DNA of 18,833 bases from a virus (Duplodnaviria > Heunggongvirae > Uroviricota > Caudoviricetes): the IMG/VR virus record IMGVR_UViG_2582580966_000005, one strand, 5' to 3'. Positions 1-18,833 of the stretch are shown in pieces; within the stretch, counting starts at the first letter, position 1; each line of letters opens with the position of its first letter. The translations under genes and the position numbers were made by a program. Under the pieces are notes generated by a model. It did no database searches, was not told the DNA's origin, and was given only the letters and a program-made list of their open reading frames with translations.

Positions 1-269
1 TCAGGGTTAATGGCGATAAATTCCTCTACCATCAGTGCAATCATGGAACCTCGCCCCCAGAGTTCTCTTGCTTGTGAAGCTCGGGTAATACGTACTGGTA
101 CATCAAGCTGACCGCGCCCCTGAATGGTAGTGTCTTTCATTGCAGCCTGACCAAACAACAGTACCGCCTGACGCTGTGGTGGAGTGCCGGTCACGGCCAT
201 TGAATTATTGATTTCAATCTGTACCAGCGGAATGCGATTGTTATCGCCGATATAATCAAAGTTAATCAT
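1..269 (-). CDS. Tail sheath protein (Mu L / gp39-like), N-terminal part only; continues beyond the window start
   Basis: ATG at 267..269 with AGGGGA Shine-Dalgarno. My translation reads MINFDYIGDNNRIPLVQIEINNSMAVTGTPPQRQAVLLFGQAAMKDTTIQG..., open to coordinate 1; pattern typical of contractile tail sheath N-termini. Confidence 0.6.
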   Translation of the reverse strand, partial: MINFDYIGDNNRIPLVQIEINNSMAVTGTPPQRQAVLLFGQAAMKDTTIQGRGQLDVPVRITRASQARELWGRGSMIALMVEEFIAINP

Positions 270-541
270 CAGGACGTCCCCTTGTCTGATGCTGCGGGTT
301 TTTCAGTCGCAGGTTTTTCTGCTGCCGCTCCCGCGGGTTTTCCGGCGGCATCAGTCGTTGCAGACGCTGCTGCCGGTGCTGCTTCAGCCGCTTTTTCCAC
401 CACAATGACGTCCCCGTCATTAAGACGGCGGCACCAGAACGGGGTGAAGGGTTTCTCTTCACCGTTCTGTGAGAGCGGAGTCATCGTGTCGGGATCGCGA
501 ATCAGGCATCCCGGCGCAGGTTTAATAAAAATGGTTGTCAT
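269..541 (-). CDS. Small protein (90 aa) with Ala/Pro/Lys-rich low-complexity C-terminus, Mu gp38 position
   Basis: ATG start with GAGGAA Shine-Dalgarno; stop overlaps the sheath ATG by 1 nt. C-terminus AAEAAPAAASATTDAAGKPAGAAAEKPATEKPAASDKGTS. Confidence 0.5.
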   Translation of the reverse strand: MTTIFIKPAPGCLIRDPDTMTPLSQNGEEKPFTPFWCRRLNDGDVIVVEKAAEAAPAAASATTDAAGKPAGAAAEKPATEKPAASDKGTS

Positions 542-544
542 CTG

Positions 545-1108
545 TTATTCCTCTGACGGTCCGGCGTTTTCACCGGCGGCAGTTGCACCAGGCAGACGGA
601 TGTGTGCCTTAAACTCCGGCGTGCCTTCCGGTTCGGTAAAGGTTTCGTAATGGCGCAGGAAATCATCCAGCGAGCTGATATCCGTCAGCGGGTCGATCAT
701 TTCCTCGCATGAGAAATACAGGGCGTACATCACGGCACCGCTGCCTGCCTGCGTTTCGGTGTAACCGTTGACCGCCTTTTCAAAGTAAAGCGGTGAGGTT
801 TTTTCTGCTCTGAAGCCGTCCAGCACGGTAATCAGGCGGGCCACAATCTGATAAAGCCCGGGACGGCTGACCTCACGGCCATTGAGCATGTCGCCGATGA
901 CGTAGAACACCCAGTGACTGACCAGACGCCCACGGGTACGCCCTTCACCGGCACCCAGCCAGGCAACATAGATAGCCGGGGCGTTAATCAGCATGGTGCG
1001 CAGTACGCTGTCGCTCCAGTCGCCGGGATGTGTGTCAACAGACACCAGTTCATTCCCGAAATACTCACGGATACGGGCGATGTACGCCTGCTCGGTTTCC
1101 GTAATCAT
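545..1108 (-). CDS. Mu gp37-like protein (DUF1834 family), 187 aa
   Basis: ATG start overlapping the upstream stop; family assignment from recollection and position. Confidence 0.55.
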   Translation of the reverse strand: MITETEQAYIARIREYFGNELVSVDTHPGDWSDSVLRTMLINAPAIYVAWLGAGEGRTRGRLVSHWVFYVIGDMLNGREVSRPGLYQIVARLITVLDGFRAEKTSPLYFEKAVNGYTETQAGSGAVMYALYFSCEEMIDPLTDISSLDDFLRHYETFTEPEGTPEFKAHIRLPGATAAGENAGPSEE

Positions 1109-1524
1109 ATAAAGCCCTTCTGGTTGCGCCCGAACACCGCCGCATCAGACTGCACCTGCGGTAAATCCCCGGATTCAGGGGCCGCACCGTCTGTATCCAC
1201 GCCGACCGGCACGTTACCGTTCATGACATCTTTCAGCCAGGCCAGCGCCTCACGGTAACGGTCACGCGCCTGATCGGATGCCCGCTGATCGCACAGGTAA
1301 TAAAAGGCAATCGTGCAGCAATGCTGAACAAGGACCGCCGGAACCACCGCCAGCGGCAGCGTGTAACGGGAAGACAGATAGCTGTCGATAAGGGCAGACG
1401 CGTCCGTCAGTGCCCGGTTCAGCTTGCGCGTGTCCGGTTCATCCGAACGGGGCACGGCCAGTAATGGCCTGAGCAAATCCTCGCGGTAACGTGCCCGCAT
1501 ATCGGTTTCGGTGGCGTAATTCAT
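1105..1524 (-). CDS. Mu gp36-like head protein (DUF1320 family), 139 aa
   Basis: ATG start, coupled by ATGA overlap at both ends. Family assignment is from recollection plus position after the capsid gene. Confidence 0.55.
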   Translation of the reverse strand: MNYATETDMRARYREDLLRPLLAVPRSDEPDTRKLNRALTDASALIDSYLSSRYTLPLAVVPAVLVQHCCTIAFYYLCDQRASDQARDRYREALAWLKDVMNGNVPVGVDTDGAAPESGDLPQVQSDAAVFGRNQKGFI

Positions 1525-1886
1525 GCGCGCGCCTTTTTCGCCTGTCTGGCGTTATTGCCGGTCTTTTTCCGGGGAGCATCCTGTACGGTTTCGGTTTCGG
1601 CTTCGGCTAAATCTGCACCGGTCTCTGCATGAACCACACCCGCCACGGCTCCCGCATCATCACCAGGCGTCTGTAGTATTCGTACAGTGAGGCATGGCTC
1701 CGCTTCCAGTCGGGCAAGCTGCTCCGGGGTGACGTCAACCTGCTGGCGTCCCCGCATGAACAGGAACCCCGCACGACGAAAATGCGTACGACTGCAACGC
1801 ACTTCTGCCAGTACCGTGACAGGACTGTCACCACTGACCTGAAGGCCTGAATCATCTGTTGCTGCCACAGTGTGATGTTCATTCAT
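1521..1886 (-). CDS. Hypothetical head-module protein (121 aa), Mu gp35 position
   Basis: ATG start with GGAGGG Shine-Dalgarno; stop overlaps the next ATG (ATGA). Confidence 0.5.
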   Translation of the reverse strand: MNEHHTVAATDDSGLQVSGDSPVTVLAEVRCSRTHFRRAGFLFMRGRQQVDVTPEQLARLEAEPCLTVRILQTPGDDAGAVAGVVHAETGADLAEAETETVQDAPRKKTGNNARQAKKARA

Positions 1887-1903
1887 ATTTGCCCTCCGCA
1901 GGG

Positions 1904-1922
1904 GCCGGGCCGTAAGCCCGGC
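1904..1922 (-). other. GC-rich stem-loop immediately downstream of the capsid gene (no U-tract)
   Basis: Minus strand reads GCCGGGC-ttacg-GCCCGGC (7-bp stem), placed between the capsid stop (1930) and the Shine-Dalgarno of the next gene. Confidence 0.45.
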
Positions 1923-1929
1923 TCACCGT

Positions 1930-2751
1930 TTACAGATAATCCGCGACAACCAGCTCCAGCTTGCCCTTCATCTCGTTAGAGACTGTGGCGTTACCGTCTG
2001 CGAACAGCTCGCGCTCCAGCAGCTGCACCGCCTGTTTTTCCAGCGAGGTGGGGACAACAATATGGGTGGGTTTGATGCCGAGTTTGCGGCCACCGTCAGC
2101 CTTAAAGTCACGCATGGCTGCCCAGCCGTGCCACAGCGCATCCAGCGTCAGCGGTGACTGCATCATGTAGGCCATCTGCCAGAAGCCGTAGCCCACATTG
2201 CGACGGGCGGAAGCACCGAACACAAACTCGTTATCAGTAAACGCACGGCCTTCATCGACTTTTGTCTGGGCAACCAGTTCGGCTTTGCGGCGATCCTGAT
2301 AAATCAGCGGTTTTACCGCGCGGGAGCAGTCAAGCAGATACCAGGCCGGGCCGCTGTAATCCGCCTGTGCACCGACAGAGCCGGTTTTTGCCACAAACAT
2401 ATTGCTGACCATCTGTGCATCACCGGAGCCATCCACTTTGGGGTAAACAGGGTGTTCGGTATCAAAGAAGTTCTGGCCGTCATAGCAGGCCGCATTCAGA
2501 CCATCACGCAGTGCAGCAAAGACCAGTTCATCCGGTTGTGCCGCAGCGGCACGACCCATTTCCTGGAATAACGGGGAGTAGATGCCGAGATTGTCGTCTT
2601 CAAAGTCATCGCGGCTATCCGCGTTCGCTTTTGAAAATGCGTCCTTCGGACTCAGCCTTATCCAGCAACTGCTCCAGCGTGGTGCTGCCGTGTTGTGCCG
2701 ACAGCGCGGCATATTCGGTACGCAGGGCGTTATACGTCTCAACGGGCACAT
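1930..2751 (-). CDS. Major capsid protein (Mu T / gp34-like); start unresolved
   Basis: The frame codes convincingly from about 2640 downward (...DDFEDDNLGIYSPLFQEMGRAAAAQPDELVF... to ...KGKLELVVADYL). The only upstream in-frame starts (ATG 2751, TTG 2742, ATG 2712) lie inside the I gene in a stretch with poor codon usage (aga, ata, agg) and four Cys; a stop at 2758..2760 closes the frame. Confidence 0.7.
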   Translation of the reverse strand: MCPLRRITPCVPNMPRCRHNTAAPRWSSCWIRLSPKDAFSKANADSRDDFEDDNLGIYSPLFQEMGRAAAAQPDELVFAALRDGLNAACYDGQNFFDTEHPVYPKVDGSGDAQMVSNMFVAKTGSVGAQADYSGPAWYLLDCSRAVKPLIYQDRRKAELVAQTKVDEGRAFTDNEFVFGASARRNVGYGFWQMAYMMQSPLTLDALWHGWAAMRDFKADGGRKLGIKPTHIVVPTSLEKQAVQLLERELFADGNATVSNEMKGKLELVVADYL

Positions 2752-3529
2752 ATTTCGTCAGATCAATAGTGCCGCCAGTTGGTGTGCCTTTTGCGGTTTC
2801 CAGTTCTGCCGACAGGCTGGCAACCTGCGTTTTCAGGGTGTCGTGCGCATCCGCACGGGTTTTGCTCCCGGTAAGGGCAGACAGCGCCGCCGTGCCCAGT
2901 TCCGGTGTAAATTCGTCACCGTCAGCCACGGTCAGACCGAGCGCCGTCAGCAACTGGCGTAATTGCTCATTCATGGGGGATTGCTCCTGAGAAGGGGAAA
3001 CGACATAGAGATCATCAGCACTGAGTGCCGCGACAGGGTTCATACCCGTAATACCCGGATCATTCGTCAGGGAAGCCATGCGCAACAGGTAGGGCTCCCC
3101 GGTGTCAGCGAAATAATGCATATATGCAGACAGATAGGCATATTCACGGTCATCAATATGTTTTTGTGCCTGTGGTGTCCATTCAGGTTTAATGAAAATC
3201 CCCTGACCCTCACGCCATTCGATGTTTTCCGGCTTAACCCATCCTGCAGCAATAGCCTTGAATCCGTTTTTCTGCGCATTCACGGAGTGATGGTCATAAT
3301 CAATCAGTAACGGCTGATGCAGGGCGGAAAGCCCGGCTTTCATCCGGTTACAGGCGGATTCGTTAATCAGCCAGCCTTCAGTCGGTTTTTCCGGGCGACC
3401 GTCACGGGCCTTTACCCGACCGGCTGGCAGTAACTGACACCATCCGTCGCCGGATGCAGTCAGCGAAGCTGAAAGCACGGCTAAACCGGAGGGGCGATTT
3501 GCGTCTTTTGGGTGATTTTCTGTCTTCAT
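2615..3529 (-). CDS. Protease/scaffold protein (Mu I / gp32-like), 304 aa
   Basis: ATG start; Ala/Leu/Thr-rich coiled-coil-like C-terminal half, consistent with a scaffold domain. My hand translation of 2641..2950 confirms this frame with host-like codon usage. Confidence 0.75.
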   Translation of the reverse strand: MKTENHPKDANRPSGLAVLSASLTASGDGWCQLLPAGRVKARDGRPEKPTEGWLINESACNRMKAGLSALHQPLLIDYDHHSVNAQKNGFKAIAAGWVKPENIEWREGQGIFIKPEWTPQAQKHIDDREYAYLSAYMHYFADTGEPYLLRMASLTNDPGITGMNPVAALSADDLYVVSPSQEQSPMNEQLRQLLTALGLTVADGDEFTPELGTAALSALTGSKTRADAHDTLKTQVASLSAELETAKGTPTGGTIDLTKYVPVETYNALRTEYAALSAQHGSTTLEQLLDKAESEGRIFKSERG

Positions 3530-3706
3530 ACCGGCAGCATAAGCCGGGTATTTTTGGGGCTGGTTTTGCGGGACTTCAGAAAGTGCTGACAGGGGGGGAA
3601 TGAGAAAGGCGCTTCACGCAGATTTTAAAGCCCGTTAAATACAGGTTAGAAAATCACGACACGCGCCTGAAGGGGGTAAGGTAATACGTTTACATACCTT
3701 AAACCA
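3530..3706 (-). promoter_or_regulatory. Candidate late promoter/operator region upstream of the I gene
   Basis: Longest non-coding gap in the head module (177 bp). Contains a 7-bp inverted repeat (plus 3677..3683 taaggta and 3695..3701 tacctta) and C-tracts (CCCCC, CCCCCCC) on the minus strand. Mu has a C-dependent promoter upstream of I. Confidence 0.3.
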
Positions 3707-4180
3707 TTACGGCGTTTCTGTGGCCTTTTTAAAGCGTTTTCTGATTTCGTCCATGATCTCCTGTTCTGCCACCTGATCAAAGCCCATATACGGACGTGCG
3801 CCAATGGCCGCCGGTCCCGGTGGCATACCAGGCAGGCCACCCCACTGATGAATGGCTGCATAAGGTTCATTTGATCCAATCAGCGCCCAGGTATCGCCAT
3901 AATCCGTGGTCAGGCGGCGGGCCAGATCGCCGTTCAGCGTCAGGATTTTGCCGGGCGTGTATCCCTTACGGGTACGCCACTCACGGTAAGGATCTGACCA
4001 GTCATGCCAGCGTTCACCATCCGGCTCTTTTTCCTGCTCAAACGCCATTTCTGACGATGACAGAAGACTCGCCGCCACACTGCGGGCCAGGTCTTTTCCG
4101 CCGCCCACAAACTGAAGCCGGGCAAACACTCGCTGGAGACGCGTAACGTCAACAACGACAGCTGCATCAATGGATGACAT
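3707..4180 (-). CDS. Virion morphogenesis protein (Mu G / gp31-like), 157 aa
   Basis: ATG start with GGAGG Shine-Dalgarno; size and position between F and I match Mu G. Confidence 0.7.
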   Translation of the reverse strand: MSSIDAAVVVDVTRLQRVFARLQFVGGGKDLARSVAASLLSSSEMAFEQEKEPDGERWHDWSDPYREWRTRKGYTPGKILTLNGDLARRLTTDYGDTWALIGSNEPYAAIHQWGGLPGMPPGPAAIGARPYMGFDQVAEQEIMDEIRKRFKKATETP

Positions 4181-4301
4181 ATTGCCTCCGCATAAAGGAT
4201 GAATATAAAATAAACAGGCGGTCAGTGTACGCTTAACTGGTAAAGTCGGTGCCTGCCTCCGGGTGGATCATGTATGCGGGTTCGACCCCCGCCACTGACC
4301 G

Positions 4302-5633
4302 TTAATCAATTTGTCCTTCCAGCACCTCAAGCATTCCGCCCCGGATATCCGATTTCAGCTTATCCATATTGATAACCCGGTAAGCATTCACAATCACATC
4401 CAGTTTGTCGGGCTGACGTTTCAGACTGTACGGTGCATTAACGGCAATCTGCACACTGCCATCCTGATTTTCCACGATATACATCAGATTGTTGTGCCGT
4501 TTGTCCCACAGTACCGCTTTTGGCCTTGCCAGCATTGCCGGTAAGCGCCCGAAGTCCTCCGGCGTCAGAGCGATGCCGTCATTCTGATGTTTCACACTGT
4601 CCGCATGGAGCACATTTTTACCGCTCATCGCCAGCAGGCGGGCCGGTGGCGTTCCCGTCCGGCTTTCCACTGCCTGCGCAATGCTTTCAGTCATAAAGCC
4701 CAGCGTGCGGATATCGTTACCACCTCGCCGGGTCTGCATGATGTTTTTTGCCCAGATGCGGAACGCCAGCTGCCGCTCCGGGCTGTTGTTCATCTCCTGA
4801 ACCACCATTTCCCGTAACGCCGGGCTTTTCACCTCGATCAGTTTGCGGATCAGCGCCTGGTCTGTGCCGAACGCTGCCGAGCCGGGGTTATATGACCAGC
4901 CCACATCCGGTGTCATGGTTCTGGTGCCATCTGAATATGTGGTCACCGGCATTTCTCTGACTTCTCCGGTCTGTTTATCCACGCCAGCCTCAACATTGCG
5001 GGTGGAGAGATGATCCTCACCGGATGAAACGGATAACCCCATTGCATCCAGACGGGCCTGAGACAATGGCCGCACACGGCAGCGGCAGTTCCAGCCATTG
5101 GGCGGGTAGTGTGTTTTCCAGAACGGATCGTCATAGCGGAATACCAGACCGTTAAGGGCGGAATGCGACGGGCGGGTACGGCTGTCCATGACCGCCACAT
5201 ACTGCCAGAACGGATGCGTGTCCGTGTTGTTCATCATCTGCGTGTAACGCCCGGCATTGTAAGCCACACGGGTGTTCACGTTGTAAATCAGCACCAGACG
5301 ACGGGGACTGCCCAGCTGCACTTCTTCCGCGTTACCGTCGCTGTCCACCACAATCTGCTTTCCCCACCATCCCAGCTTTTGCAGGCGTGGCGTCAGTGTG
5401 CGGATAAATTCTTTCTGTGAAATCCCCTCATCAATGGCCCGCTGCACTTCGGCCTGTAATGTGGTTACCACATCCAGCCGTGCCGTTTTTGCTGCCGTGA
5501 ATGAGCGGGCATGAACATCCGCGTCTGTTTCGAACCAGTTCCAGCTGATATGCGCCCCTTTGGCGCGGAAGTATGCCACCGTCTCTTTTGAGGGAAGCGT
5601 GGCGGCATAACCTAAATCAATCCCCTGAGCCAT
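4302..5633 (-). CDS. Head morphogenesis protein (Mu F / gp30-like, SPP1 gp7 family), 443 aa
   Basis: ATG start with AAGGGGA Shine-Dalgarno; overlaps the portal 3-prime end by 17 nt. Central region with conserved-looking motifs (PFWQYVAVMDSRTRPSH, GWNCRCRV) typical of this family. Confidence 0.8.
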   Translation of the reverse strand: MAQGIDLGYAATLPSKETVAYFRAKGAHISWNWFETDADVHARSFTAAKTARLDVVTTLQAEVQRAIDEGISQKEFIRTLTPRLQKLGWWGKQIVVDSDGNAEEVQLGSPRRLVLIYNVNTRVAYNAGRYTQMMNNTDTHPFWQYVAVMDSRTRPSHSALNGLVFRYDDPFWKTHYPPNGWNCRCRVRPLSQARLDAMGLSVSSGEDHLSTRNVEAGVDKQTGEVREMPVTTYSDGTRTMTPDVGWSYNPGSAAFGTDQALIRKLIEVKSPALREMVVQEMNNSPERQLAFRIWAKNIMQTRRGGNDIRTLGFMTESIAQAVESRTGTPPARLLAMSGKNVLHADSVKHQNDGIALTPEDFGRLPAMLARPKAVLWDKRHNNLMYIVENQDGSVQIAVNAPYSLKRQPDKLDVIVNAYRVINMDKLKSDIRGGMLEVLEGQID

Positions 5634-7215
5634 CCAGCATCCCCTTCATTTCCGCAGCAAACATGGCATCACTGAGCAGCGTCATCAGGCGGGAATCATC
5701 CATTTCACGGTAAAGGGCAGGCAGGTCTGCCAGTGCCTCCGCCAGCCCCCGCGTTCTGATGACATCAATGACCGGCTCCAGCACCGGATCGATGGCCTCC
5801 TGTAAGCGGCGGGCAGGCACCGCGTCCCCCATGTCGTCCAGTTCATCACGCGGCGTGTTTTTCGCTTCCGGCAGTCGGGCTGAAAGCGCCGTCTGTTCTG
5901 TCTTTTCCTGTTTTTCCGGTAGCGTTTCCCTGTCAGGCATGGCCGGTTCATTACTGCTCTGACGGACACGGAATATGGCTTCACCGGGCGTGGGCTGTGG
6001 AATACCGGTCTGCTCCCGTACCCAGGGATCAGGAATATCCATCCCCGCACTGAGTTGCATCACCGCACTGGCTATTTTGGTGATATCCCCCGGTTCTTTG
6101 GTCTGGAAACAGATACGCGGCAGGCGACGGATATCAATGGCGTGGGCGGTGTTCAGGGCATACAGCGGATACACCAGATCGCGGTTTAGGGTTGCAGCCA
6201 GCTGGCGTAAATCAGAATCCCTGATTTCCCGGCGCACCTCGTTATGCACCTCACCCAGCGAGCGCGCGCCTTTGTCTCCGGCTTCTGTGGTCAGCGTGCC
6301 GCCGAGTATTGCTTTGGAGATGGAACGCTCACCCCACGAAATCATGGTTTCAAACGGATCGGCCTGACCGTTCGCTGCCGCCTGAAACTCCAGCGACATC
6401 CCGGCCGGGATGATCCCGCCTGTACGTCGCCCGATATCCATCACCGCCCGCATCAGGGCACTTTTCTGCTCCGGTGTTGCCCCGGACGGGTATTTCCCGA
6501 CCTTCATTGGCAGGCCGTACACCTCCAGAAATTCCGCCAGATCGCGCACGGAATAGTTTTTGAAAATGAACGGCCAGATAAGCGTTCTGACAAGCCCCGT
6601 CGCACCACCGTAGCCGGTGCGTGAACGCGACTGATGCACTATCCAGCCAAAGGGCTGAAACGCCACCCCGGCATGGCTGCCGTCACGCAGCCGCAGTTCG
6701 CTCAAATCATCCGGGTTAAGGCAGAAATGCCCGCTGTCACGCCATCGGATGGCGCGGATGATGTGCATCTTACCGAGCATCCCGTGCTCAATCTCCATGC
6801 AGGAATAGCCCTTCAGGATGGCATCGGTGGCATCAAATAACATGGCATCAAACCAGTCGGCGGAATGCAGATATTCGTCGAGCATTTCCGCGTCCTTTTT
6901 CTCATTCGCGCTGGCGTTCGGTGGCGGCTCAATGCTCCATGGCACCCCCTGAATGGCAAGACGTCGCTTGCCCAGCTCCGCAAAAAGGTGGGTGTCCTTT
7001 TCTTCAATGTCAGCCGCCAGATCGGACTGGGCAATCAGATCGCCACGTTCAGCCCCGCGAAGGCACTGCGCCGCCCGGTTCGGGGTGATACCCGAGGCGG
7101 GATGCTCAACATAACGGCTGGCAATCTGCGGAATATCCAGCGCGGTACTTTGCATCTCCGGGTCAAAGGAGAAAGGTTTTCCGTCAAGATCAATTATGCG
7201 TCCCACTACCAGCAC
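5617..7215 (-). CDS. Portal protein (Mu gp29-like, DUF935 family), about 532 aa
   Basis: Track start at 7213..7215 is a GTG overlapping the terminase stop by 10 nt; first in-frame ATG is 20 codons further in. Large protein between terminase and F, as in Mu. Confidence 0.8.
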   Translation of the reverse strand: MLVVGRIIDLDGKPFSFDPEMQSTALDIPQIASRYVEHPASGITPNRAAQCLRGAERGDLIAQSDLAADIEEKDTHLFAELGKRRLAIQGVPWSIEPPPNASANEKKDAEMLDEYLHSADWFDAMLFDATDAILKGYSCMEIEHGMLGKMHIIRAIRWRDSGHFCLNPDDLSELRLRDGSHAGVAFQPFGWIVHQSRSRTGYGGATGLVRTLIWPFIFKNYSVRDLAEFLEVYGLPMKVGKYPSGATPEQKSALMRAVMDIGRRTGGIIPAGMSLEFQAAANGQADPFETMISWGERSISKAILGGTLTTEAGDKGARSLGEVHNEVRREIRDSDLRQLAATLNRDLVYPLYALNTAHAIDIRRLPRICFQTKEPGDITKIASAVMQLSAGMDIPDPWVREQTGIPQPTPGEAIFRVRQSSNEPAMPDRETLPEKQEKTEQTALSARLPEAKNTPRDELDDMGDAVPARRLQEAIDPVLEPVIDVIRTRGLAEALADLPALYREMDDSRLMTLLSDAMFAAEMKGMLDGSGD

Positions 7216-8870
7216 CCCCGATCAAATTCATGATATGCCTCATCGTCATCACGATAACCGCCCTCCATTGCCCGCGACCGCTCCGGCAGCGCCTGACAGG
7301 CTGATTCATCCAGGATGAAACCCTCCATGTATGACGCCCGGTTTGCCATACAGAGTGCCACGGCAAAATCACCATGGCGGCGGGCGTTCGCAGCCGTTGC
7401 GTTCTGGTCCTTCGTGCGCCCCTTGTCGATTTGCGGGATACCATTCACCACCTTCACATGGCGCAAATCATCAAGCGTGGTCTGATGGCGGGCGACGAGG
7501 ATATTCTGATCTTCAAACTCGGCTTTCAGTTTTGGCATCCACTCGCCGTACCACTTCGGCGACAACATCACGCAGTCGATGATGTCCGGGCCAAAGGCCA
7601 GCAGTGCGGCCTCTGCCAGATAGCCGCCGTTACCGGTGGCGTCGAACGCCGCACCGACCAGCGCCGGAACGCGGGTCAGGATGTACATCATCACCTGTTC
7701 CTGCTGGGCATACGGCAGGTTGCGCAGCTCCACGCGAAACACCTCGCGCTTTGCCAGGAGTTCGGTGATTTCCAGCAGCACAAAGCAGGACAGGTCACCG
7801 GTGCGGGCAAAGTCTTCCCCGAAGCTGAAGCGGGAACGGGGATTTAATTTCTCTGTAAGCGGTTTTAAATGTTCTTCACACCAGGTTAAAACTTCCGATT
7901 CACGCAGCCATGCGGCACGGCTGATGAAGTCGTCCGGGGCTTCAAACGTCAGAATCGGGATGTCACGAATCATCGCCATTTCAATAAGCGCGTGAGGAAT
8001 ATAGGCACCGCCGGATTTTTTCGGGATACAGCCGTATTCCTCGTCGGCATCCTCACGGGTCGGGGCGTTTTTGTAGAGATCATCACGCCATTTCTGCTCG
8101 CTTTCCGGTGACCATTCCTGATCGGTGACGTAACAGATACGACGGTACAGCCCGTCCGCAATGGCATCATCCAGGGTTATGCGGTGGACGCTGTAATCCT
8201 TGCGCCCCTCGCGGGCTTCCTGAATGTACTGATTAAACAGATTATCGACGCCGTTATGCGTGGAAATAATGCGCACGCGTGCGCCCCACATGGTAAGCGC
8301 CATTGCCGCCTTGAGAAGCTCATCCAGTGACTCGTGGAACGCGGCTTCATCAATCACCACATCCCCCTGAAGACCGCGCAGGTTTGACGGACGGGAAGAC
8401 AATGCCTGAATTTTGAATCCACTGTTCGGAAAGCGGATCATGTAGGTCAGAATTTCTTCTTTTTTATCCCGATCCCAGAATGTCTGCTCATACACATCAG
8501 CATCTGCCAGCTGGTTAAAGGCACGGGAGAACAGCGCGCAGGCAGAAATATATTCCAGCGCCATCTCCTGTTTTGACCCCACATAAAACACATTACGGCC
8601 ACCACGACGCTTAGGCTTTGCGGCGGTAATGACGTTACGCCCGGCTTCCGCCCAGGTAAGCCCGGTGCGTCGGGATTTCTCCGCGATGCAGACCTGACTT
8701 TCATCTGCAAACCAGCGGGCCTGATAATCCAGAAACACCGGCATATCACCGGGCAAATCAAGGCTGTCCGGCACATCCACGCCCAGCAGGGCTTTTTCAC
8801 CGGACAGATCAATTTTGCGGGGAGGTGTCATTTGTATCAGTGAAGGAGACTTTTCTTTGGCTTTGTTCAT
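7206..8870 (-). CDS. Terminase large subunit (Mu gp28-like), 554 aa
   Basis: ATG at 8868..8870, coupled to the upstream ORF. Size, position upstream of the portal, and ATPase/nuclease-type motifs (e.g. VIDEAAFHE) fit a large terminase. Confidence 0.85.
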   Translation of the reverse strand: MNKAKEKSPSLIQMTPPRKIDLSGEKALLGVDVPDSLDLPGDMPVFLDYQARWFADESQVCIAEKSRRTGLTWAEAGRNVITAAKPKRRGGRNVFYVGSKQEMALEYISACALFSRAFNQLADADVYEQTFWDRDKKEEILTYMIRFPNSGFKIQALSSRPSNLRGLQGDVVIDEAAFHESLDELLKAAMALTMWGARVRIISTHNGVDNLFNQYIQEAREGRKDYSVHRITLDDAIADGLYRRICYVTDQEWSPESEQKWRDDLYKNAPTREDADEEYGCIPKKSGGAYIPHALIEMAMIRDIPILTFEAPDDFISRAAWLRESEVLTWCEEHLKPLTEKLNPRSRFSFGEDFARTGDLSCFVLLEITELLAKREVFRVELRNLPYAQQEQVMMYILTRVPALVGAAFDATGNGGYLAEAALLAFGPDIIDCVMLSPKWYGEWMPKLKAEFEDQNILVARHQTTLDDLRHVKVVNGIPQIDKGRTKDQNATAANARRHGDFAVALCMANRASYMEGFILDESACQALPERSRAMEGGYRDDDEAYHEFDRGCW

Positions 8871-9118
8871 CAGGCTTTACCTGTCAGAATGCTTTTGATT
8901 CGGAACTCAAGCTCTTCAGTCATCACGTCCACGCCACTCAACTCATCAGTGACAGCCCCTGCCAGCAGCGAATGCAGTTGTTCCAGGGATATTTCCCCGG
9001 CAATGCTGAGTTCAGTCAACTCACGACACGCTTTTATGGTTTCAGGAGGTAACTGTGTTGCAAGACTGAATGCCTTCTGATGAGCACTGCTCATCAGTGA
9101 GCGGTTATCTGTTACCAC
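8870..9118 (-). CDS. Small protein (82 aa) sharing the C-terminal motif of the upstream gp27-like protein
   Basis: GTG start at 9116..9118 (checked by hand) with a strong AGGAGGTG Shine-Dalgarno overlapping the gp27-like stop; its stop overlaps the large terminase ATG. C-terminus AVTDELSGVDVMTEELEFRIKSILTGKA parallels AVTDELRGVDGMSEQIEFRIRQMLLGKA. Confidence 0.5.
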   Translation of the reverse strand: MVTDNRSLMSSAHQKAFSLATQLPPETIKACRELTELSIAGEISLEQLHSLLAGAVTDELSGVDVMTEELEFRIKSILTGKA

Positions 9119-9128
9119 GATTCACCTC

Positions 9129-9710
9129 CTACGCCTTACCAAGCAGCATCTGCCTGATACGGAATTCTATCTGCTCGCTCATGCCATCCACGCCGCGCAA
9201 CTCGTCGGTGACGGCGTTCGCCATCTCTTCAGCAAATGCGGCCCGGATTTCTTTTTCACGCTTAATGCTGCGCTCGGCGGCACTTTCCGCACGCTGTGCC
9301 GACAGGAGGATGTCCTTAATAAGGCGCATATCCACATCGCTGTCGCTGTTCAGGGATTCGGTGGCGGCACGCAGACGGCGGTACATCAGGGCACGGGACA
9401 TCTCCAGAATCAGTGCCGTGGTTTCACCGGTCGGCTTATCCCCCAGTTCGGCCATCATGGCTTTTGTCTGCTCGCGTAAATCACGCAGATTACGGGCAAT
9501 CAGCTCATTACGGGAGGCTTCCCGGCTGATGGCCGCCGGTGAAAGCTGCTGCTCTTCCGGCAGGCCTGCCTCACGGATCAGACGGTTGATTTCCTCGCGG
9601 ATCTGGACCTGCGTCAGGCGTTTTTCACGCAGCATTTCCAGCAGCGGCTTACGGATGCTGTCGGGGAGCAAATCCACCTTGCGTACACGGCCACGCGTCG
9701 GCTTATCCAT
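9129..9710 (-). CDS. Mu gp27-like DNA-binding protein (DUF3486 family; putative small terminase-like subunit), 193 aa
   Basis: ATG start with AAGGGGG Shine-Dalgarno. Basic N-terminus (RGRVRKVDLLPDSIRKPLLEMLREKRLTQVQIREEINRL); located two genes upstream of the large terminase. Confidence 0.6.
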   Translation of the reverse strand: MDKPTRGRVRKVDLLPDSIRKPLLEMLREKRLTQVQIREEINRLIREAGLPEEQQLSPAAISREASRNELIARNLRDLREQTKAMMAELGDKPTGETTALILEMSRALMYRRLRAATESLNSDSDVDMRLIKDILLSAQRAESAAERSIKREKEIRAAFAEEMANAVTDELRGVDGMSEQIEFRIRQMLLGKA

Positions 9711-9712
9711 CG

Positions 9713-10003
9713 TTACCCCCTTGCGCGTGGTTTCTTCACACCCGGAACAGTGGCACGACCTTCCGCCACATCCTGACCCCGGCCGGTCAGTTCAGCGATG
9801 AAATAACCGTTAACAAGCGTGCGCTTACGCACCAGTCCCTGCTCAGCAAGCCAGGCAATGTGGGTGTGAACGGTGTCGCGGGACACGCGGTGGCCGTAAT
9901 CATCCAGGCAGTCCTGAAGCACGGATTCGCCCAGTTCGCCGTTGTAATCCGCCAGCGACCGCAGAATGACAAGACGCTGATCTTCAGTAATGAAATCACT
10001 CAT
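9713..10003 (-). CDS. Hypothetical protein (96 aa), Mu gp26 position; possible winged-helix fold
   Basis: ATG start with AAGGA Shine-Dalgarno; overlaps the upstream gene by 8 nt. Confidence 0.5.
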   Translation of the reverse strand: MSDFITEDQRLVILRSLADYNGELGESVLQDCLDDYGHRVSRDTVHTHIAWLAEQGLVRKRTLVNGYFIAELTGRGQDVAEGRATVPGVKKPRARG

Positions 10004-10307
10004 TGTGTTTTTTCCTTACAGCCTGCTCCAGCAGCAGTTCGTTCTGATGAGAGACGGATTTCAGGGTGGCGTTGGTGGCCTTTAGCTCACCGCGCAGGGT
10101 GGTGATTTCGATATTGAGTCTGTTCACCTCCTGCTGCGTGGGCAGGCCGGAAATCCGGCTCTCCACCCGCTCAACCCGATCGGAGAGTTTTTCAAAGGCC
10201 TCGCGGGGGACGAAGGTTTTGCGCATCAGCGCCATGAAGATCCCCCCGGCCGTGGCCGTTGCCGACAGGATCGGCACAACATAATCTTTAACGATGCTGA
10301 CCCACAT
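9996..10307 (-). CDS. Small membrane protein with N-terminal TM helix and coiled-coil C-terminus (103 aa); Mu gp25/DUF2730-like, possible releasin
   Basis: ATG start with GGAGG Shine-Dalgarno. TM segment VVPILSATATAGGIFMALM. Sits after the spanins as in the Mu lysis cassette. The releasin assignment is inferred from position and architecture. Confidence 0.45.
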   Translation of the reverse strand: MWVSIVKDYVVPILSATATAGGIFMALMRKTFVPREAFEKLSDRVERVESRISGLPTQQEVNRLNIEITTLRGELKATNATLKSVSHQNELLLEQAVRKKHNE

Positions 10308-10515
10308 GACCGGCCTCCATGATGTTCTGGCAGTTCACACAACGGATGGCATCCGGCACGGCAACCAGACGGGCAGCCGGAATGTCACCCCCGCAGTCCG
10401 CGCATACACGCCTGCCCGGTGTCTCCGCCACCCGGCGCTTACGTGTCAGCCGGTCACAAAGGGCGCGTTCTGTTGCCCGCTCCATGACAGCCTGAGCACA
10501 ATCTGAATCATCCAT
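10288..10515 (-). CDS. TraR/DksA-family C4 zinc-finger protein (75 aa)
   Basis: ATG at 10513..10515 with AAGGAAAAAGG Shine-Dalgarno, 10 nt after the o-spanin stop; the track start at 10581 has a poorly placed Shine-Dalgarno. Two CxxC pairs (CADCGG ... CVNCQ) at the spacing typical of TraR/DksA. Confidence 0.7.
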   Translation of the reverse strand: MDDSDCAQAVMERATERALCDRLTRKRRVAETPGRRVCADCGGDIPAARLVAVPDAIRCVNCQNIMEAGHVGQHR

Positions 10516-10525
10516 ACCTTTTTCC

Positions 10526-10897
10526 TTACTTCGTCTTTCCTGCCGGAACAGCAGGCGTTCCGGCCATATCAGTAAATTCATGTTGTCGCCGCGCCTCCAG
10601 ACGACGAATACTGGCCTTGTCCACGTTGCAGTTCTTGATCACCGCCAGCAGTTGCAGGTTGTAAGTGACCGATGCCCCAAACGTGAACGGCTCCGGCGCA
10701 GGAGGGACCAGGCAGTCAGCCAGCCATTCAGCGGGGATCGGAACCGGCTGCACAGGCACGTATTTCACAGACGGCCCGGCGCACCCGCTCAGCCACATCA
10801 TCAGGCACAGGAACAGAGGCCGCAGGCACTGTTGCCAGCGACCGGCGGACAACGCTCTGCTGCTCCTCGCTGTGCTGAATGTTCTGTTGCTTTTCAT
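10526..10897 (-). CDS. Putative o-spanin (outer-membrane lipoprotein, Rz1-like), overlapping the i-spanin; start uncertain
   Basis: Lipobox-like LSGC with an upstream hydrophobic stretch (RPLFLCLMMWLSGCAGP), followed by a proline-rich mature region. ATG at 10895..10897 is the most upstream ATG before the lipobox, giving an unusually long signal region. Confidence 0.5.
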   Translation of the reverse strand: MKSNRTFSTARSSRALSAGRWQQCLRPLFLCLMMWLSGCAGPSVKYVPVQPVPIPAEWLADCLVPPAPEPFTFGASVTYNLQLLAVIKNCNVDKASIRRLEARRQHEFTDMAGTPAVPAGKTK

Positions 10898-11249
10898 TCG
10901 TGGCCGCCTTGCTGATTTGTGAAATGAGTTGCAGGGTGCGTTGCTGGTTTGCCAGCACCAGACGGGCTTCGTCCCGTTCACGCACAAGCACATGATTATT
11001 GTCCTCAAGGCGCTGCGTCTTCTGGTGCATTCCCCATACCACGGCAGCCAGCACGCTCATCCCCCCCAGCGCCGCCATACAGCCTCCGGCAATCAGGGCC
11101 GGTAAGGGATTGTTCACCGCAGCCACAGCACACCCCGCAGCAGCACAACGGCACACAGCAGCGCAATCATGAGCGGTCGCCAGAAGCGGTTCAGACTTTC
11201 GGCAAATCGTAACGACATAACCATTCATCCGCCGAACGGCGGGCCTCAA
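10728..11249 (-). CDS. Putative i-spanin (inner-membrane spanin, Rz-like); start uncertain
   Basis: Track start at 11249 is a TTG; an in-frame ATG lies at 11226..11228. Predicted TM segment LPALIAGGCMAALGGMSVLAAVVWGM, then a coiled-coil-like QKTQRLEDNNHVLVRERDEARLVLANQQRTLQLISQ. Overlaps the endolysin 3-prime end and contains the o-spanin in another frame. Confidence 0.5.
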   Translation of the reverse strand: MRPAVRRMNGYVVTICRKSEPLLATAHDCAAVCRCAAAGCAVAAVNNPLPALIAGGCMAALGGMSVLAAVVWGMHQKTQRLEDNNHVLVRERDEARLVLANQQRTLQLISQISKAATNEKQQNIQHSEEQQSVVRRSLATVPAASVPVPDDVAERVRRAVCEIRACAAGSDPR

Positions 11250-11691
11250 GACCGGGGAGTTTTACCCCCTTTGAATAAATCCAGCGGATATACTGCTTAC
11301 AGGACGCGGGCATCTGCCCGGCATTGATAAGGCGCAGGAGCGTGGAGTTGCGAAAGTTCGTTTCACCGGCCCAGAAAATCCAGGAGGCCAGCGCCACCGT
11401 CTGACCACGGGTAAGCGGCACCTGAACATGACGATCGATAGCCGCAAAGGCCCATTTCATGTCCTTTTCCAGCAGCTCCAGACACTCTTCATCAGTTTTT
11501 GTCATCCCCGGTTTCACATCCGGGCCGGTATGGCCGTAACAGATGGTGGGGGTGCCGGTGGGATCAATGTACGTGGTGTTTTCTTTCCCTTCCCAGTAGC
11601 CGGTGTAGTGCGTGGCAATAGTGAACGTCCCGGCTCCGGCCAGAACAAGGGCAATCAGCTTTTTACGCAGTGGCGCGGGGAGTTTTGGCAT
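11191..11691 (-). CDS. lys: SAR endolysin (glycoside hydrolase family 24 phage lysozyme with N-terminal signal-anchor-release domain), 166 aa
   Basis: ATG start. N-terminal weakly hydrophobic Gly/Ala-rich segment LIALVLAGAGTFTIATHY, followed by the catalytic spacing E-x8-D-x5-T in WEGKENTTYIDPTGTPT. Confidence 0.8.
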   Translation of the reverse strand: MPKLPAPLRKKLIALVLAGAGTFTIATHYTGYWEGKENTTYIDPTGTPTICYGHTGPDVKPGMTKTDEECLELLEKDMKWAFAAIDRHVQVPLTRGQTVALASWIFWAGETNFRNSTLLRLINAGQMPASCKQYIRWIYSKGVKLPGLEARRSADEWLCRYDLPKV

Positions 11692-11762
11692 TGTTACGCT
11701 GTCTCATGGTGTTCTCTGAGCCAGCGTAACCGTGGAAAAAAGGGGGCAGGATTTGCGGAATA
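11692..11762 (-). promoter_or_regulatory. Candidate activator-dependent late promoter region upstream of the endolysin gene
   Basis: 71-bp non-coding gap between the activator gene and the first lysis gene; in Mu the lys promoter sits in the equivalent place. No clear sigma-70 -35/-10 was identified. Confidence 0.3.
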
Positions 11763-12185
11763 TCAGAAAAGCCGGGGCTGCGTGCGCTCCTGATGCAGGC
11801 GACGCTGGTTGCGGATAACGGAGTAAATCTGCGTCTCTGACATCTGGTAATGGCGGCGCAGGGGTTCAATTTTTTCACCCTGGCTCCAGCGGGAAAAAAT
11901 CTCATTATTGCGCAGTTCGGTGAAAAGGGATTCACCGACCGGGAGATAATAACCACGCCCGCCCATGTACCCGGCCTGTGCGGCCGCAACCTTACGGGCA
12001 AGCATTCCCGCCTGAGCAGATTCAATCCCCTGACGGTGCAGTTCAGCACTGATCACATCAACCAGGTCACGCAGCGTGCCGGGCCAGTTCTTTTTCAGCT
12101 CATCATCAGGAATATCATCCAGACGGTCAATCAGCGCGTGCAGCTGTTCGCTGTCACCAAACATGCTCATCTGTGTTTCAGCCAT
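11763..12185 (-). CDS. mor: Mor/C-family transcriptional activator (140 aa)
   Basis: ATG start with GGAGG Shine-Dalgarno. Motifs typical of the Mor/C family as I recall them: N-terminal MFGDSEQLHALIDRL, GRGYYLP, and a C-terminal HTH-like QMSETQIYSVIRNQRRL. It is the only Mor/C-type gene in the window, so it could equally be the C-type late activator. Confidence 0.75.
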   Translation of the reverse strand: MAETQMSMFGDSEQLHALIDRLDDIPDDELKKNWPGTLRDLVDVISAELHRQGIESAQAGMLARKVAAAQAGYMGGRGYYLPVGESLFTELRNNEIFSRWSQGEKIEPLRRHYQMSETQIYSVIRNQRRLHQERTQPRLF

Positions 12186-12216
12186 CCCCGCCTCCGGTCA
12201 CCATTACACAGGGCAA

Positions 12217-12252
12217 GTTTAAAATAAAAATCCCGCGCTGTGGCGGGATTTG
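12217..12252 (-). terminator. Rho-independent terminator for minus-strand transcripts, between gemA and the Mor/C-like gene
   Basis: Read on the minus strand: AAATCCCGC-cacagc-GCGGGATTT (9-bp stem, 6-nt loop) followed by TTATTTTAAA. Plus-strand arms are 12228..12236 and 12243..12251. Confidence 0.6.
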
Positions 12253-12255
12253 GGG

Positions 12256-12765
12256 TTAAAAAGGGGAGGATTCTTCATACAGCCTGCAAACGCGCTCATA
12301 ACTCATCACTGTACGCACTGACATCCCCAGCACATCCAGCATCTTGCGACGGTGCCAGCGTTTGAGACACTCCAGCACATCCGAGGCCAGTGCGGGGTGT
12401 TGCTCCAGCCACTGCCAGTTAGCCACACCTTCGCCACCGTTCTGCGCGGCCGTCTGCGACTTCACCCAGCGGTTAAGGGCCGTTTCCCCGCCATCAGCGA
12501 TAAAGCCCTGCCGGTGCATTACCTTCCAGATGGCGCGAATTTTGGCGGTCACCGTACCCGGTTTTAAGGCCCGGTTAACCGGTTTCTGACGCACTTTAAA
12601 ACCGCGTTTTTTGAAAACATCCAGCACGCGGGATAACTCATCCGGTGACATATCCCGGCAACTGGATTTGCCGGTGGCTGCCAGCAGAACGAATGTATAG
12701 GTTTCATCATCCAGGGCAAGCTCGCGCTTTGCCACATGAATGGCGGATATCAGTTTCCCTCTCAT
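12256..12765 (-). CDS. gemA: GemA-like regulatory protein (Mu gp16 / DUF1018 family), 169 aa
   Basis: ATG start. N-terminal LISAIHVAKRELALDDETYTFVLLAATGKSSCRDMSPDELSRVLDVFKKRGF matches my recollection of the GemA family; sits immediately upstream of the Mor/C-like gene as in Mu. Confidence 0.75.
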   Translation of the reverse strand: MRGKLISAIHVAKRELALDDETYTFVLLAATGKSSCRDMSPDELSRVLDVFKKRGFKVRQKPVNRALKPGTVTAKIRAIWKVMHRQGFIADGGETALNRWVKSQTAAQNGGEGVANWQWLEQHPALASDVLECLKRWHRRKMLDVLGMSVRTVMSYERVCRLYEESSPF

Positions 12766-13058
12766 GCTGTATCAACACTCCTGCTGATATGATAGATATT
12801 ATTTTCCCGATCGAGCTGAACCCGATACTCCGGAGGAATCACAAAAATATTAAAACCATCAACAGTTTTTATTCTTGAGTAGTATTCCCCCTTATGATAT
12901 CTGGCAAGTGCATTAATCAGAGAAGCCGCCGCCAGCCCAATCAGGTATTTTTTATGAAAAATACTGATAACTTTCCGGCACAGCCATCGTGTAATGACGA
13001 ATGCACCGAAAAACGATGTGATATATAAACACCAGAACAACTGCGAACTACTGTCCAT
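12762..13058 (-). CDS. Small membrane protein (98 aa, one N-terminal TM helix)
   Basis: ATG start with AAGGAG Shine-Dalgarno; stop overlaps the gemA start (ATGA). TM segment LFWCLYITSFFGAFVITRWLC. Very AT-rich (about 27% G+C on one sampled line). Confidence 0.5.
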   Translation of the reverse strand: MDSSSQLFWCLYITSFFGAFVITRWLCRKVISIFHKKYLIGLAAASLINALARYHKGEYYSRIKTVDGFNIFVIPPEYRVQLDRENNIYHISRSVDTA

Positions 13059-13245
13059 TATCTTTCTCCTTATTCAGTCTTCTGCGGCATTCGGCACAGT
13101 CATCAGGGCTTTCAAATGTATCCGGCTCGCGATTATGAGCCAGATATAACCACCGCCCACATATACTGATATTTTCACCTGTTTTAAAAAAATGATGCTT
13201 CTTAGCCATCAATGGCCGCGCCCATCCAGCGGGTAGACTATTCAT
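13048..13245 (-). CDS. Small Cys/His-containing protein (65 aa), possible zinc-binding
   Basis: ATG start with GGAGGA Shine-Dalgarno; overlaps both neighbours. Cys and His residues spaced as ...HHFF...C...H...CAEC...; zinc binding is a guess. Confidence 0.45.
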   Translation of the reverse strand: MNSLPAGWARPLMAKKHHFFKTGENISICGRWLYLAHNREPDTFESPDDCAECRRRLNKEKDNGQ

Positions 13246-13612
13246 TAGCTTTATCCTCCATGCTGGACAGAATCATATGTATTAATGTCGGGCGTGGAGA
13301 TATACGCATTTCATTAAGCGTCTGAAGGGCAGCAACAGCAGCCATTTTATCGGTGCCTCTGGCAATTTCTGCAAGAGAATGCACAATCCATAACGGACTT
13401 AACGCTACGGCTGAATCCAGAATCATGTCATCCATAATAATTTCTGGCACATCCCGTTTGTCACATTCTTTATCCATAAAAGAAACGATTTTTTCCGCAT
13501 CTTCCGGTTTCATACCTCCGGCGATAAGAATTTTACGATATTCATAAGACGTTCTTAATTCAATGCTCATATTCATCTCCTGTAACTCTGACAAGGACGT
13601 GATTTTTCTCAT
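13238..13612 (-). CDS. Hypothetical soluble protein (124 aa) in the AT-rich island
   Basis: ATG start with GGGAGG Shine-Dalgarno, coupled to the upstream gene. Manual counts on lines within this gene give about 37-42% G+C. Confidence 0.5.
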   Translation of the reverse strand: MRKITSLSELQEMNMSIELRTSYEYRKILIAGGMKPEDAEKIVSFMDKECDKRDVPEIIMDDMILDSAVALSPLWIVHSLAEIARGTDKMAAVAALQTLNEMRISPRPTLIHMILSSMEDKANE

Positions 13613-17920: not shown

Positions 17921-18833
17921 TCACACCTGTGAGAGTAATTCAGGGTTGGTATAAACCTCTTTAAAGGCCGCATTAATATGTTTTTCTGTCAGCGCCGCGC
18001 CTTCACCGCTGGCGGTGAGCCACGCCTGGTTAAGCGTATGTGTCAGAACGCGTAACGCTCCCGGTTTTTCAGCGATAGCCTGCATGACGGCCAGCTCGGC
18101 CTCACCACTGATACCCCATGCCCTGGCAATGGCCAGCACATCCGCCTTTTTAGCCTTGCGAAGTTGTTTTGTACGGGCAAGACGACTGAACAGGCGCGAT
18201 AAGTCATCAACGGCGCGGCGTCCACCCTTAAACAGTCCGCGCGGGTTACCAATAAGCACCATCCCGATCCCCGTGGCGTCCTGGATTGCACGCAGTTGTT
18301 CCAGACCGTCAATACCCAGATGATCCGCCTCATCCACAATCACCAGTCCACGCGTTCCCGTCAGGCGACGGCGGATGGCGCGGGATAACGCCCCCTTGTT
18401 CGCGCGGGTGTAATCAATCCCCAGCGCATCGGCCAGCTCCAGCAGACCCTCCGTGACGCTGGAGTGCGCGGGTGACAGGGTGATCATCCAGGTGTTTGGT
18501 TGCTCCTGGCAGTAATTACGGGCGGTGGCCGTTTTACCCACACCCGGTACGCCCACAATGACGTTAATACAGCCCATCAGGCGAACCGCCTGAAACAGTG
18601 CGCGCAGCTCCTGGACTGTCTGCGTTTCCACAAACTGCGGCGGTTCCGGCAGTGCGCTTTGTTTATTCCAGTTCTCATACCAGGAACGCAGGGAAGCAGC
18701 CACAGCGGCGTTATCGCCTTTATATTTCCCCTTGCGGAAAGCCGATAATGTGCCGTCGAAAATCCCCGCCTCTCTGGCGATGGCATACTGCGTCAGTACG
18801 CCGCCATCAATAAGTTCATCAATGGTCTTGATT
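17921..18833 (-). CDS. B: MuB-like transposition ATPase (AAA+), partial: N-terminus lies beyond the window end
   Basis: Frame is open to the window edge. My translation of 18704..18832 gives IKTIDELIDGGVLTQYAIAREAGIFDGTLSAFRKGKYKGDNAAVAAS (HTH domain), followed by the Walker A motif GVPGVGKT and Walker B LVIVDEADHL in the track ORF. The M at 18703 in the track is an internal GTG. Stop at 17921 overlaps the next gene. Confidence 0.8.
   Translation of the reverse strand, partial: IKTIDELIDGGVLTQYAIAREAGIFDGTLSAFRKGKYKGDNAAVAASLRSWYENWNKQSALPEPPQFVETQTVQELRALFQAVRLMGCINVIVGVPGVGKTATARNYCQEQPNTWMITLSPAHSSVTEGLLELADALGIDYTRANKGALSRAIRRRLTGTRGLVIVDEADHLGIDGLEQLRAIQDATGIGMVLIGNPRGLFKGGRRAVDDLSRLFSRLARTKQLRKAKKADVLAIARAWGISGEAELAVMQAIAEKPGALRVLTHTLNQAWLTASGEGAALTEKHINAAFKEVYTNPELLSQV

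Follow-up and report, generated by a model that had tools for sequence, protein, structure and literature searches.

The unusual junction between the scaffold gene I and the capsid gene T in this Mu-like prophage was very probably made by a 481-bp deletion, and the element is then a recently inactivated, defective prophage in one Escherichia coli clone. The window, that is the whole stretch of DNA analyzed here (18,833 bp), is the entire contig JMGU01000157.1 of the draft genome of E. coli 2-011-08_S3_C2 (GCA_000687025.1). The relevant genes are located on the minus strand and constitute a Mu-type head module, which includes homologs of Mu gp35, gp36 and gp37 on the same strand and the following features:

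7215..5617, minus strand: portal gene
5633..4302, minus strand: F/gp30
4180..3707, minus strand: G
3529..2615, minus strand: I open reading frame (304 aa) with its TAG at 2617..2615
end at 1930, minus strand: capsid (gpT) frame

Structure of the I/T junction

The initial annotation had described an I reading frame that ends with the TAG at 2617..2615, and a capsid frame with an ATG at 2751 and a TGA upstream at 2760..2758. Both were recovered on the minus strand, the latter as an ORF of 273 amino acids (2751..1930) with its first ATG at 2751, as was the +1 position of the capsid frame with respect to I (GGA TAG C versus GAT AGC). The lack of a credible start in the capsid frame was also confirmed. 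This frame crosses gene I upstream of about 2617, and its N-terminal 44 or so residues (MCPLRRITPCVPNMPRCRHNTAAPRWSSCWIRLSPKDAFSKANAD) are rich in Cys, Trp and Arg, as had been remarked, and show no homology to gpT. The next ATG, at 2559 (codon 65 of the ORF), is directly preceded by AGGA-A. Capsid coding had been placed from about 2640 onward. The frame found there is indeed the real capsid frame, but homology puts the true frame switch at 2617/2616. What did not stand is the treatment of I as an intact gene with its native stop, as the TAG was created by the junction and I is short by 73 codons.

Absence of 481 bp at the junction

Positions 1900-3600 of the window (1701 bp) were compared with complete E. 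coli genomes by megablast. Six complete genomes matched this region at 99.6-99.8% identity in two pieces that span 2182 bp rather than 1701. In a blastn comparison with the corresponding locus of E. coli JE86-ST05 (L001), query positions 1-985 matched L001 3001-3985 and query positions 984-1701 matched L001 4465-5182; the latter piece, which harbors the T remnant, is 99.9% identical. In total, the remnants differ from functional alleles at 4 of 1,701 positions. The break is located at window position 2617/2616, and the 481 bp present in the relatives at this point are absent. The resulting features are:

2616..2617, no strand applicable: deletion junction, where the 2-nt overlap of the blastn pieces is the TA microhomology of both breakpoints
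2615..3529, minus strand: protease/scaffold gene I, truncated to codons 1-304 of 377 and ending in a junction-made stop
2615..2974, minus strand: remnant of a Z-like internal scaffold frame, with an in-frame ATG at 2974, AGGAG 9 nt upstream and 119 of 192 codons left
1930..2616, minus strand: T remnant, codons 88-315 and the native TAA stop, with neither ribosome-binding site nor start codon
2618..2751, minus strand: spurious 5' extension of the capsid frame, which is I codons 260-304 in the I frame and whose capsid-frame peptide matches no gpT
2557..2559, minus strand: internal ATG, equivalent to Met107 of intact gpT (FQEMGR) and start of the 209-aa KDA76728.1

Lost with this block are the coding sequence for I residues 305-377, the ribosome-binding site (GAGGA) and start of T, and the coding sequence for T residues 1-87. 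As 481 equals 3 x 160 + 1, what is left of I and of T no longer shares a reading frame. The terminal TAG of I arose at the junction, with TA contributed by codon 305 of I (TAC, Tyr) and G by codon 88 of T (AGC, Ser). Upstream of 2617, the capsid frame reads I codons 260-304 in +1, so that its codon usage is poor and the peptide odd.

Comparison of the junction with related prophages, a check that the initial annotation had proposed, revealed the intact I/T arrangement with 481 bp more. Intact E. coli relatives encode an I protein of 377 and a T protein of 315 amino acids, with TAATG at the boundary and thus an overlap of 1 nt. The same layout occurs in more distant relatives; across the intact prophages, I measures 374-377 aa and T 315 aa. 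According to the annotation of Mu (NC_000929), its I has 361 amino acids and an internal Z start, its T has 305 amino acids and a start confirmed by protein sequencing, and the two genes overlap by 4 nt (ATGA). The sequence comparison indicates that the difference is a deletion in the window and not an insertion in the relatives, as the whole of Mu I can be aligned with the intact 377-aa I. The alignment includes YxExLGxQIGVAALSAQL..., with which Mu and the relatives continue where the I of the window ends with ...RIFKSERG. The same direction follows from intact T, whose alignment with the solved Mu-type capsid proteins 9jod (E 2e-142) and 8rkc starts at residue 5. Near-identical alleles elsewhere thus carry additional sequence for exactly those conserved protein parts that are missing here, as in a deletion pseudogene.

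The loss very probably occurred as a single 481-bp deletion via illegitimate recombination between two sites with only TA in common. It removed the 3' end of I (codons 305-377), and with it the C-terminal part of both the protease/scaffold and the internal Z-like product, as well as the I/T boundary with the ribosome-binding site and start codon of T, and T codons 1-87. With a loss of 3n + 1 nucleotides, the I frame runs into the assembled TAG and the T remnant is left in the +1 frame without a start. In the intact allele, no direct or inverted repeat longer than the TA dinucleotide was detected at the breakpoint ends. An 11-nt inverted repeat (4006-4016/4484-4494) is located about 20 nt off both ends and is not regarded as causal. 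A role for the strong gyrase site of Mu was likewise not supported; in Mu it sits in the G-I spacer, hundreds of bases from either breakpoint. A scan for promoters and terminators (1850-3750) yielded no relevant coding-strand feature at the junction and a terminator-like hairpin at 2610-2623 on the opposite strand only.

Remnants of genes I and T

Apart from I222S, the truncated I has the same sequence as the first 304 residues of the 377-aa I protein from E. coli JE86-ST05. It matches profile positions 1-262 of 330 of Pfam PF10123 (E 5.6e-71), whereas the intact protein matches positions 1-330. The N-terminal protease part of the profile and the gene's own start are present, but profile positions 263-330 are unmatched, and the C-terminal scaffold end, comprising about 70 last residues that are conserved from Mu to the E. 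coli prophages, is absent. No solved structure sequence-related to the I protein was found. The Z-like start, with its AGGAG at about 2983-2987 on the minus strand, aligns with the annotated Z start of Mu (PMNETLRKLL in Mu, PMNEQLRQLL in the window, with CAGGAG before both). As this start is conserved in the window, the scaffold product is likewise truncated, from 192 to 119 residues. The public gene call for the contig is this 119-aa product from ATG 2974, and the 304-aa ORF has no call.

In the capsid frame, the match to Pfam PF10124 (gpT) starts at ORF residue 45 and covers profile positions 78-289 of 289 only, compared with 2-289 in the intact relative; a full-length match to this HK97-fold family, with N-terminal arm and extended loop, was not obtained. 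Alignment with Mu-family capsid proteins, the other proposed check, confirmed that N-terminal residues are missing, with homology to Mu gpT beginning at about residue 86, at SRDDFEDDNLGIY. Homologs with the same overlap and a start at 2751 or 2559 had been named as evidence for ordinary gene overlap, but the homologs start 87 codons further upstream. A start and ribosome-binding site of T abutting the I stop (TAATG or ATGA) are not found in the window; the GAGGAAATGCAATAATG start region lies inside the deleted 481 bp. The ATG at 2559 is the sole in-frame ATG left in the T remnant. The apparent Shine-Dalgarno sequence before it consists of the codons CAG GAA, which encode a Q-E that is conserved in Mu, and an AGGA only 1 nt upstream would, on a reading of the sequence, be poorly spaced for initiation.

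In the capsid protein of phage JBD30 (8rkc), the N-terminal arm comprises residues 6-25 and the extended loop includes Lys66, and both make inter-subunit contacts in the shell (PMC11445458). The N-arm (6-25) and the E-loop (Lys66) both fall within the 87 residues missing from T. From this we infer that the missing part of T holds the N-terminal arm and the extended loop of the HK97 fold.

Occurrence of the junction and alternative explanations

The same junction is present in three assemblies: the window, the Logan assembly of SRR1186459 and the IMG/VR contig UViG_2609459825_000003. These may represent one isolate, clone or sibling colonies and need not reflect wide inheritance. The Logan contig encodes the exact 304-aa truncated I, matches window positions 1911-9529 with one mismatch and crosses the junction for several kb. 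UViG_2609459825_000003 (19,478 bp) matches window positions 1-13352 with four mismatches and reaches 806 bp past the window end. A 160-nt junction query against 5,426 complete E. coli genomes did not recover the scar, and the listed full-coverage matches are all split and span 641 bp. The exact junction 24-mer had no match in one-genome-per-species GTDB and JGI metagenomes, which shows rarity only. A literature search on the strain name yielded nothing about the prophage. The window differs from the other two scar-bearing assemblies only at positions 2121, 11062, 11864 and 12186, with G in the window versus T at three of these sites and C versus A at one. At 2121 the window has G (Ala, in the context GCTGGGCAG), whereas both other assemblies and the intact relatives have T (Ser). 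The four differences may be sequencing errors in the draft contig and not real SNPs.

An assembly or library artefact would mean that the strain harbors intact I and T genes and that the 481-bp gap is the product of a misjoin or of chimeric reads. The short draft contig ends inside conserved phage genes, so that repeats evidently troubled its assembly, and the few G/T differences from the other two assemblies are possible sequencing errors. However, three assemblies from different pipelines carry the junction, and the Logan contig continues straight across it. The breakpoints share 2 nt only; in the lack of a longer direct repeat, a k-mer graph should not collapse here unless reads span the junction. 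An artefact is therefore unlikely. The initial annotation had offered three readings of its own, a genuine long overlap, a +1 frameshift that yields a scaffold-capsid fusion, and an indel that makes the capsid gene a pseudogene. Only the last proved right, and it fell short in one respect, as the 481-bp deletion also cuts 73 codons off I. A genuine long overlap, with a 273-aa capsid protein made from ATG 2751 or a nearby GTG or TTG inside I, is in agreement with the presence of an open frame with an ATG. Its first 44 residues, however, lack gpT homology, the match begins only at Pfam position 78 and at about Mu residue 86, the T starts of relatives overlap the I stop by just 1 or 4 nt, and the overlapped stretch is simply I in the +1 frame, whereas relatives encode the 87 missing N-terminal residues on the absent 481 bp. 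This explanation is accordingly given hardly any credence.

Programmed +1 frameshifting at a stop codon is known from prfB, where the site is CUU UGA C and a slippery codon acts together with a Shine-Dalgarno stimulator. The junction has a superficial likeness to this type, in that a stop codon precedes an open +1 frame: relative to I, the T remnant lies in +1 and is open from 2757, and a +1 slip at GGA-TAG-C, or elsewhere in 2757-2618, would yield an I(1-304)-T(88-315) fusion. But the scar has neither a slippery P-site codon nor a Shine-Dalgarno stimulator upstream, and it is not conserved. On a reading of the sequence, the tRNA-Gly on GGA could not re-pair on GAU, the upstream sequence AGCGAACGC contains no Shine-Dalgarno-like stimulator, and in AGC GAA CGC GGA TAG C no such motif appears 3-6 nt upstream. 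Moreover, GGA-TAG-C was itself made by the deletion, the listed complete E. coli matches that cover both sides and Mu all show the intact arrangement without this site, and any fusion would lack the capsid N-arm, the E-loop and the scaffold C-terminus. A functional fusion produced in this way is thus extremely improbable. The remnants might also be kept because they are useful. If the truncated 304-aa scaffold/protease, or the 209-aa capsid fragment from ATG 2559, were expressed, it could act as a dominant-negative assembly poison against the heads of superinfecting Mu-like phages and so protect the clone; more rarely, a +1 slip at the scar could supply a fusion. Nothing speaks directly for this idea, although truncated I retains its own start and protease part and the lesion occurs in more than one assembly. 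Against it, a single clone carries the scar, which does not occur among the listed matches in the 5,426 complete genomes, ATG 2559 appears badly spaced from its AGGA, and a recent origin suffices to explain the intact state of the remnants. Such a function is very improbable. The 481-bp deletion remains the preferred explanation of the junction.

The remaining prophage

Gene content is colinear with intact Mu-like E. coli prophages across the whole 18.8 kb. The colinear FORC_069 prophage has 33 other annotated genes, and each is present at full length in the window, with protein identities of mostly 92-100% and a few more divergent ones down to 60%; B extends past the contig end, and a small gene of the lysis region differs at its start only. 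In matches to the whole window, the length difference is essentially the 481 bp, and one relative has IS66 inserted as well. The deletion is thus the sole lesion detected in the 18.8 kb, and it is probably recent.

The contig begins (position 1) inside the tail-sheath/DUF2635 region and ends (position 18833) inside the B (AAA ATPase) gene, and the Logan contig breaks at 1911, just past the T stop. Such breaks within conserved phage genes may point to another, related Mu-like prophage in this genome. The I protein shares only about 69% identity with its FORC_069 counterpart, whereas identities of 99-100% are seen for the flanking G, F, gp36 and gp37 products. The comparison (window 2618..3529, minus-strand I, with L004 3377..4501) suggests that I was exchanged between Mu-like prophage lineages, a case of mosaicism. 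Between Gp27 and the large terminase-like gene, an 82-aa protein has a tail of 31 residues that is 64.5% identical to the last 31 residues of Gp27. The two tails form a short local duplication:

8873..8965 and 9132..9224, minus strand: duplicated protein tails

An 80-nt tRNA-like element is located at 4221..4300 on the plus strand. It is antisense to the late genes and falls within the 121-nt spacer that separates the F/gp30 stop (4302) from the G start (4180). With permissive filters only, the Rfam tRNA model matched 4221..4300 at 31.0 bits (gathering threshold 29, E 3.7e-5); ARAGORN and the gathering run on the whole window missed the element. PGAP places a 'tRNA-OTHER' at the equivalent spot in two relatives. 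The acceptor, D and T arms appear canonical (GGUUCGA), but 24 nt instead of 18 make up the region of the anticodon arm, which does not fold with a normal 7-nt loop.

Consequences for the prophage

A capsid protein without N-arm and extended loop, together with a scaffold without its C-terminus, would leave no functional capsid protein and thus no heads. Judged from homology and fold topology, the prophage would be unable to build heads, and no particles are expected from it unless I and T come from a co-resident Mu-like prophage. Supply in trans by such a second prophage is possible, as E. coli strains often harbor several and the contig ends lie within conserved phage genes. The case is ordinary prophage decay, of interest for annotation and without new biology. 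The database lists the 209-aa "gpT family protein" (KDA76728.1) and the 119-aa I fragment as genes; both should be marked as pseudogenes, and inventories of prophages should score this one as head-assembly defective. With one lesion and all neighbours intact, the prophage illustrates, in a cleanly dated case, the initial step of inactivation in prophage decay.

Comparison with phage Mu and other prophages

The order portal-F-G-I/Z-T-gp35-gp36-gp37 is like that of the Mu head module (NC_000929, with I, Z and T as Mup32-34). Mu I aligns with the I of the intact relative over the full length, the T proteins are about 67% identical, and the internal Z start of Mu with its Shine-Dalgarno sequence is conserved in the window. 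In contrast to Mu, I in the window is without its last 73 codons, and T without its ribosome-binding site, its start and codons 1-87. The prophage family of the window also harbors the 121-nt F-G spacer, whereas Mu has no such spacer and its F and G genes overlap.

Among E. coli prophages, intact Mu-like elements such as those of JE86-ST05 (NZ_AP022815.1), 23CRST047 and FORC_069 carry the 481 bp. In the intact relatives the DNA flanking the scar is 99.6-99.8% identical, and the Mu-like prophages of O157 strains are about 92-94% identical. The prophage of the window resembles cryptic prophages inactivated by small deletions, in which likewise a structural gene was destroyed by a short-homology deletion and its neighbours were left untouched. 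Compared with other cryptic prophages it looks very young, with one lesion in 18.8 kb.
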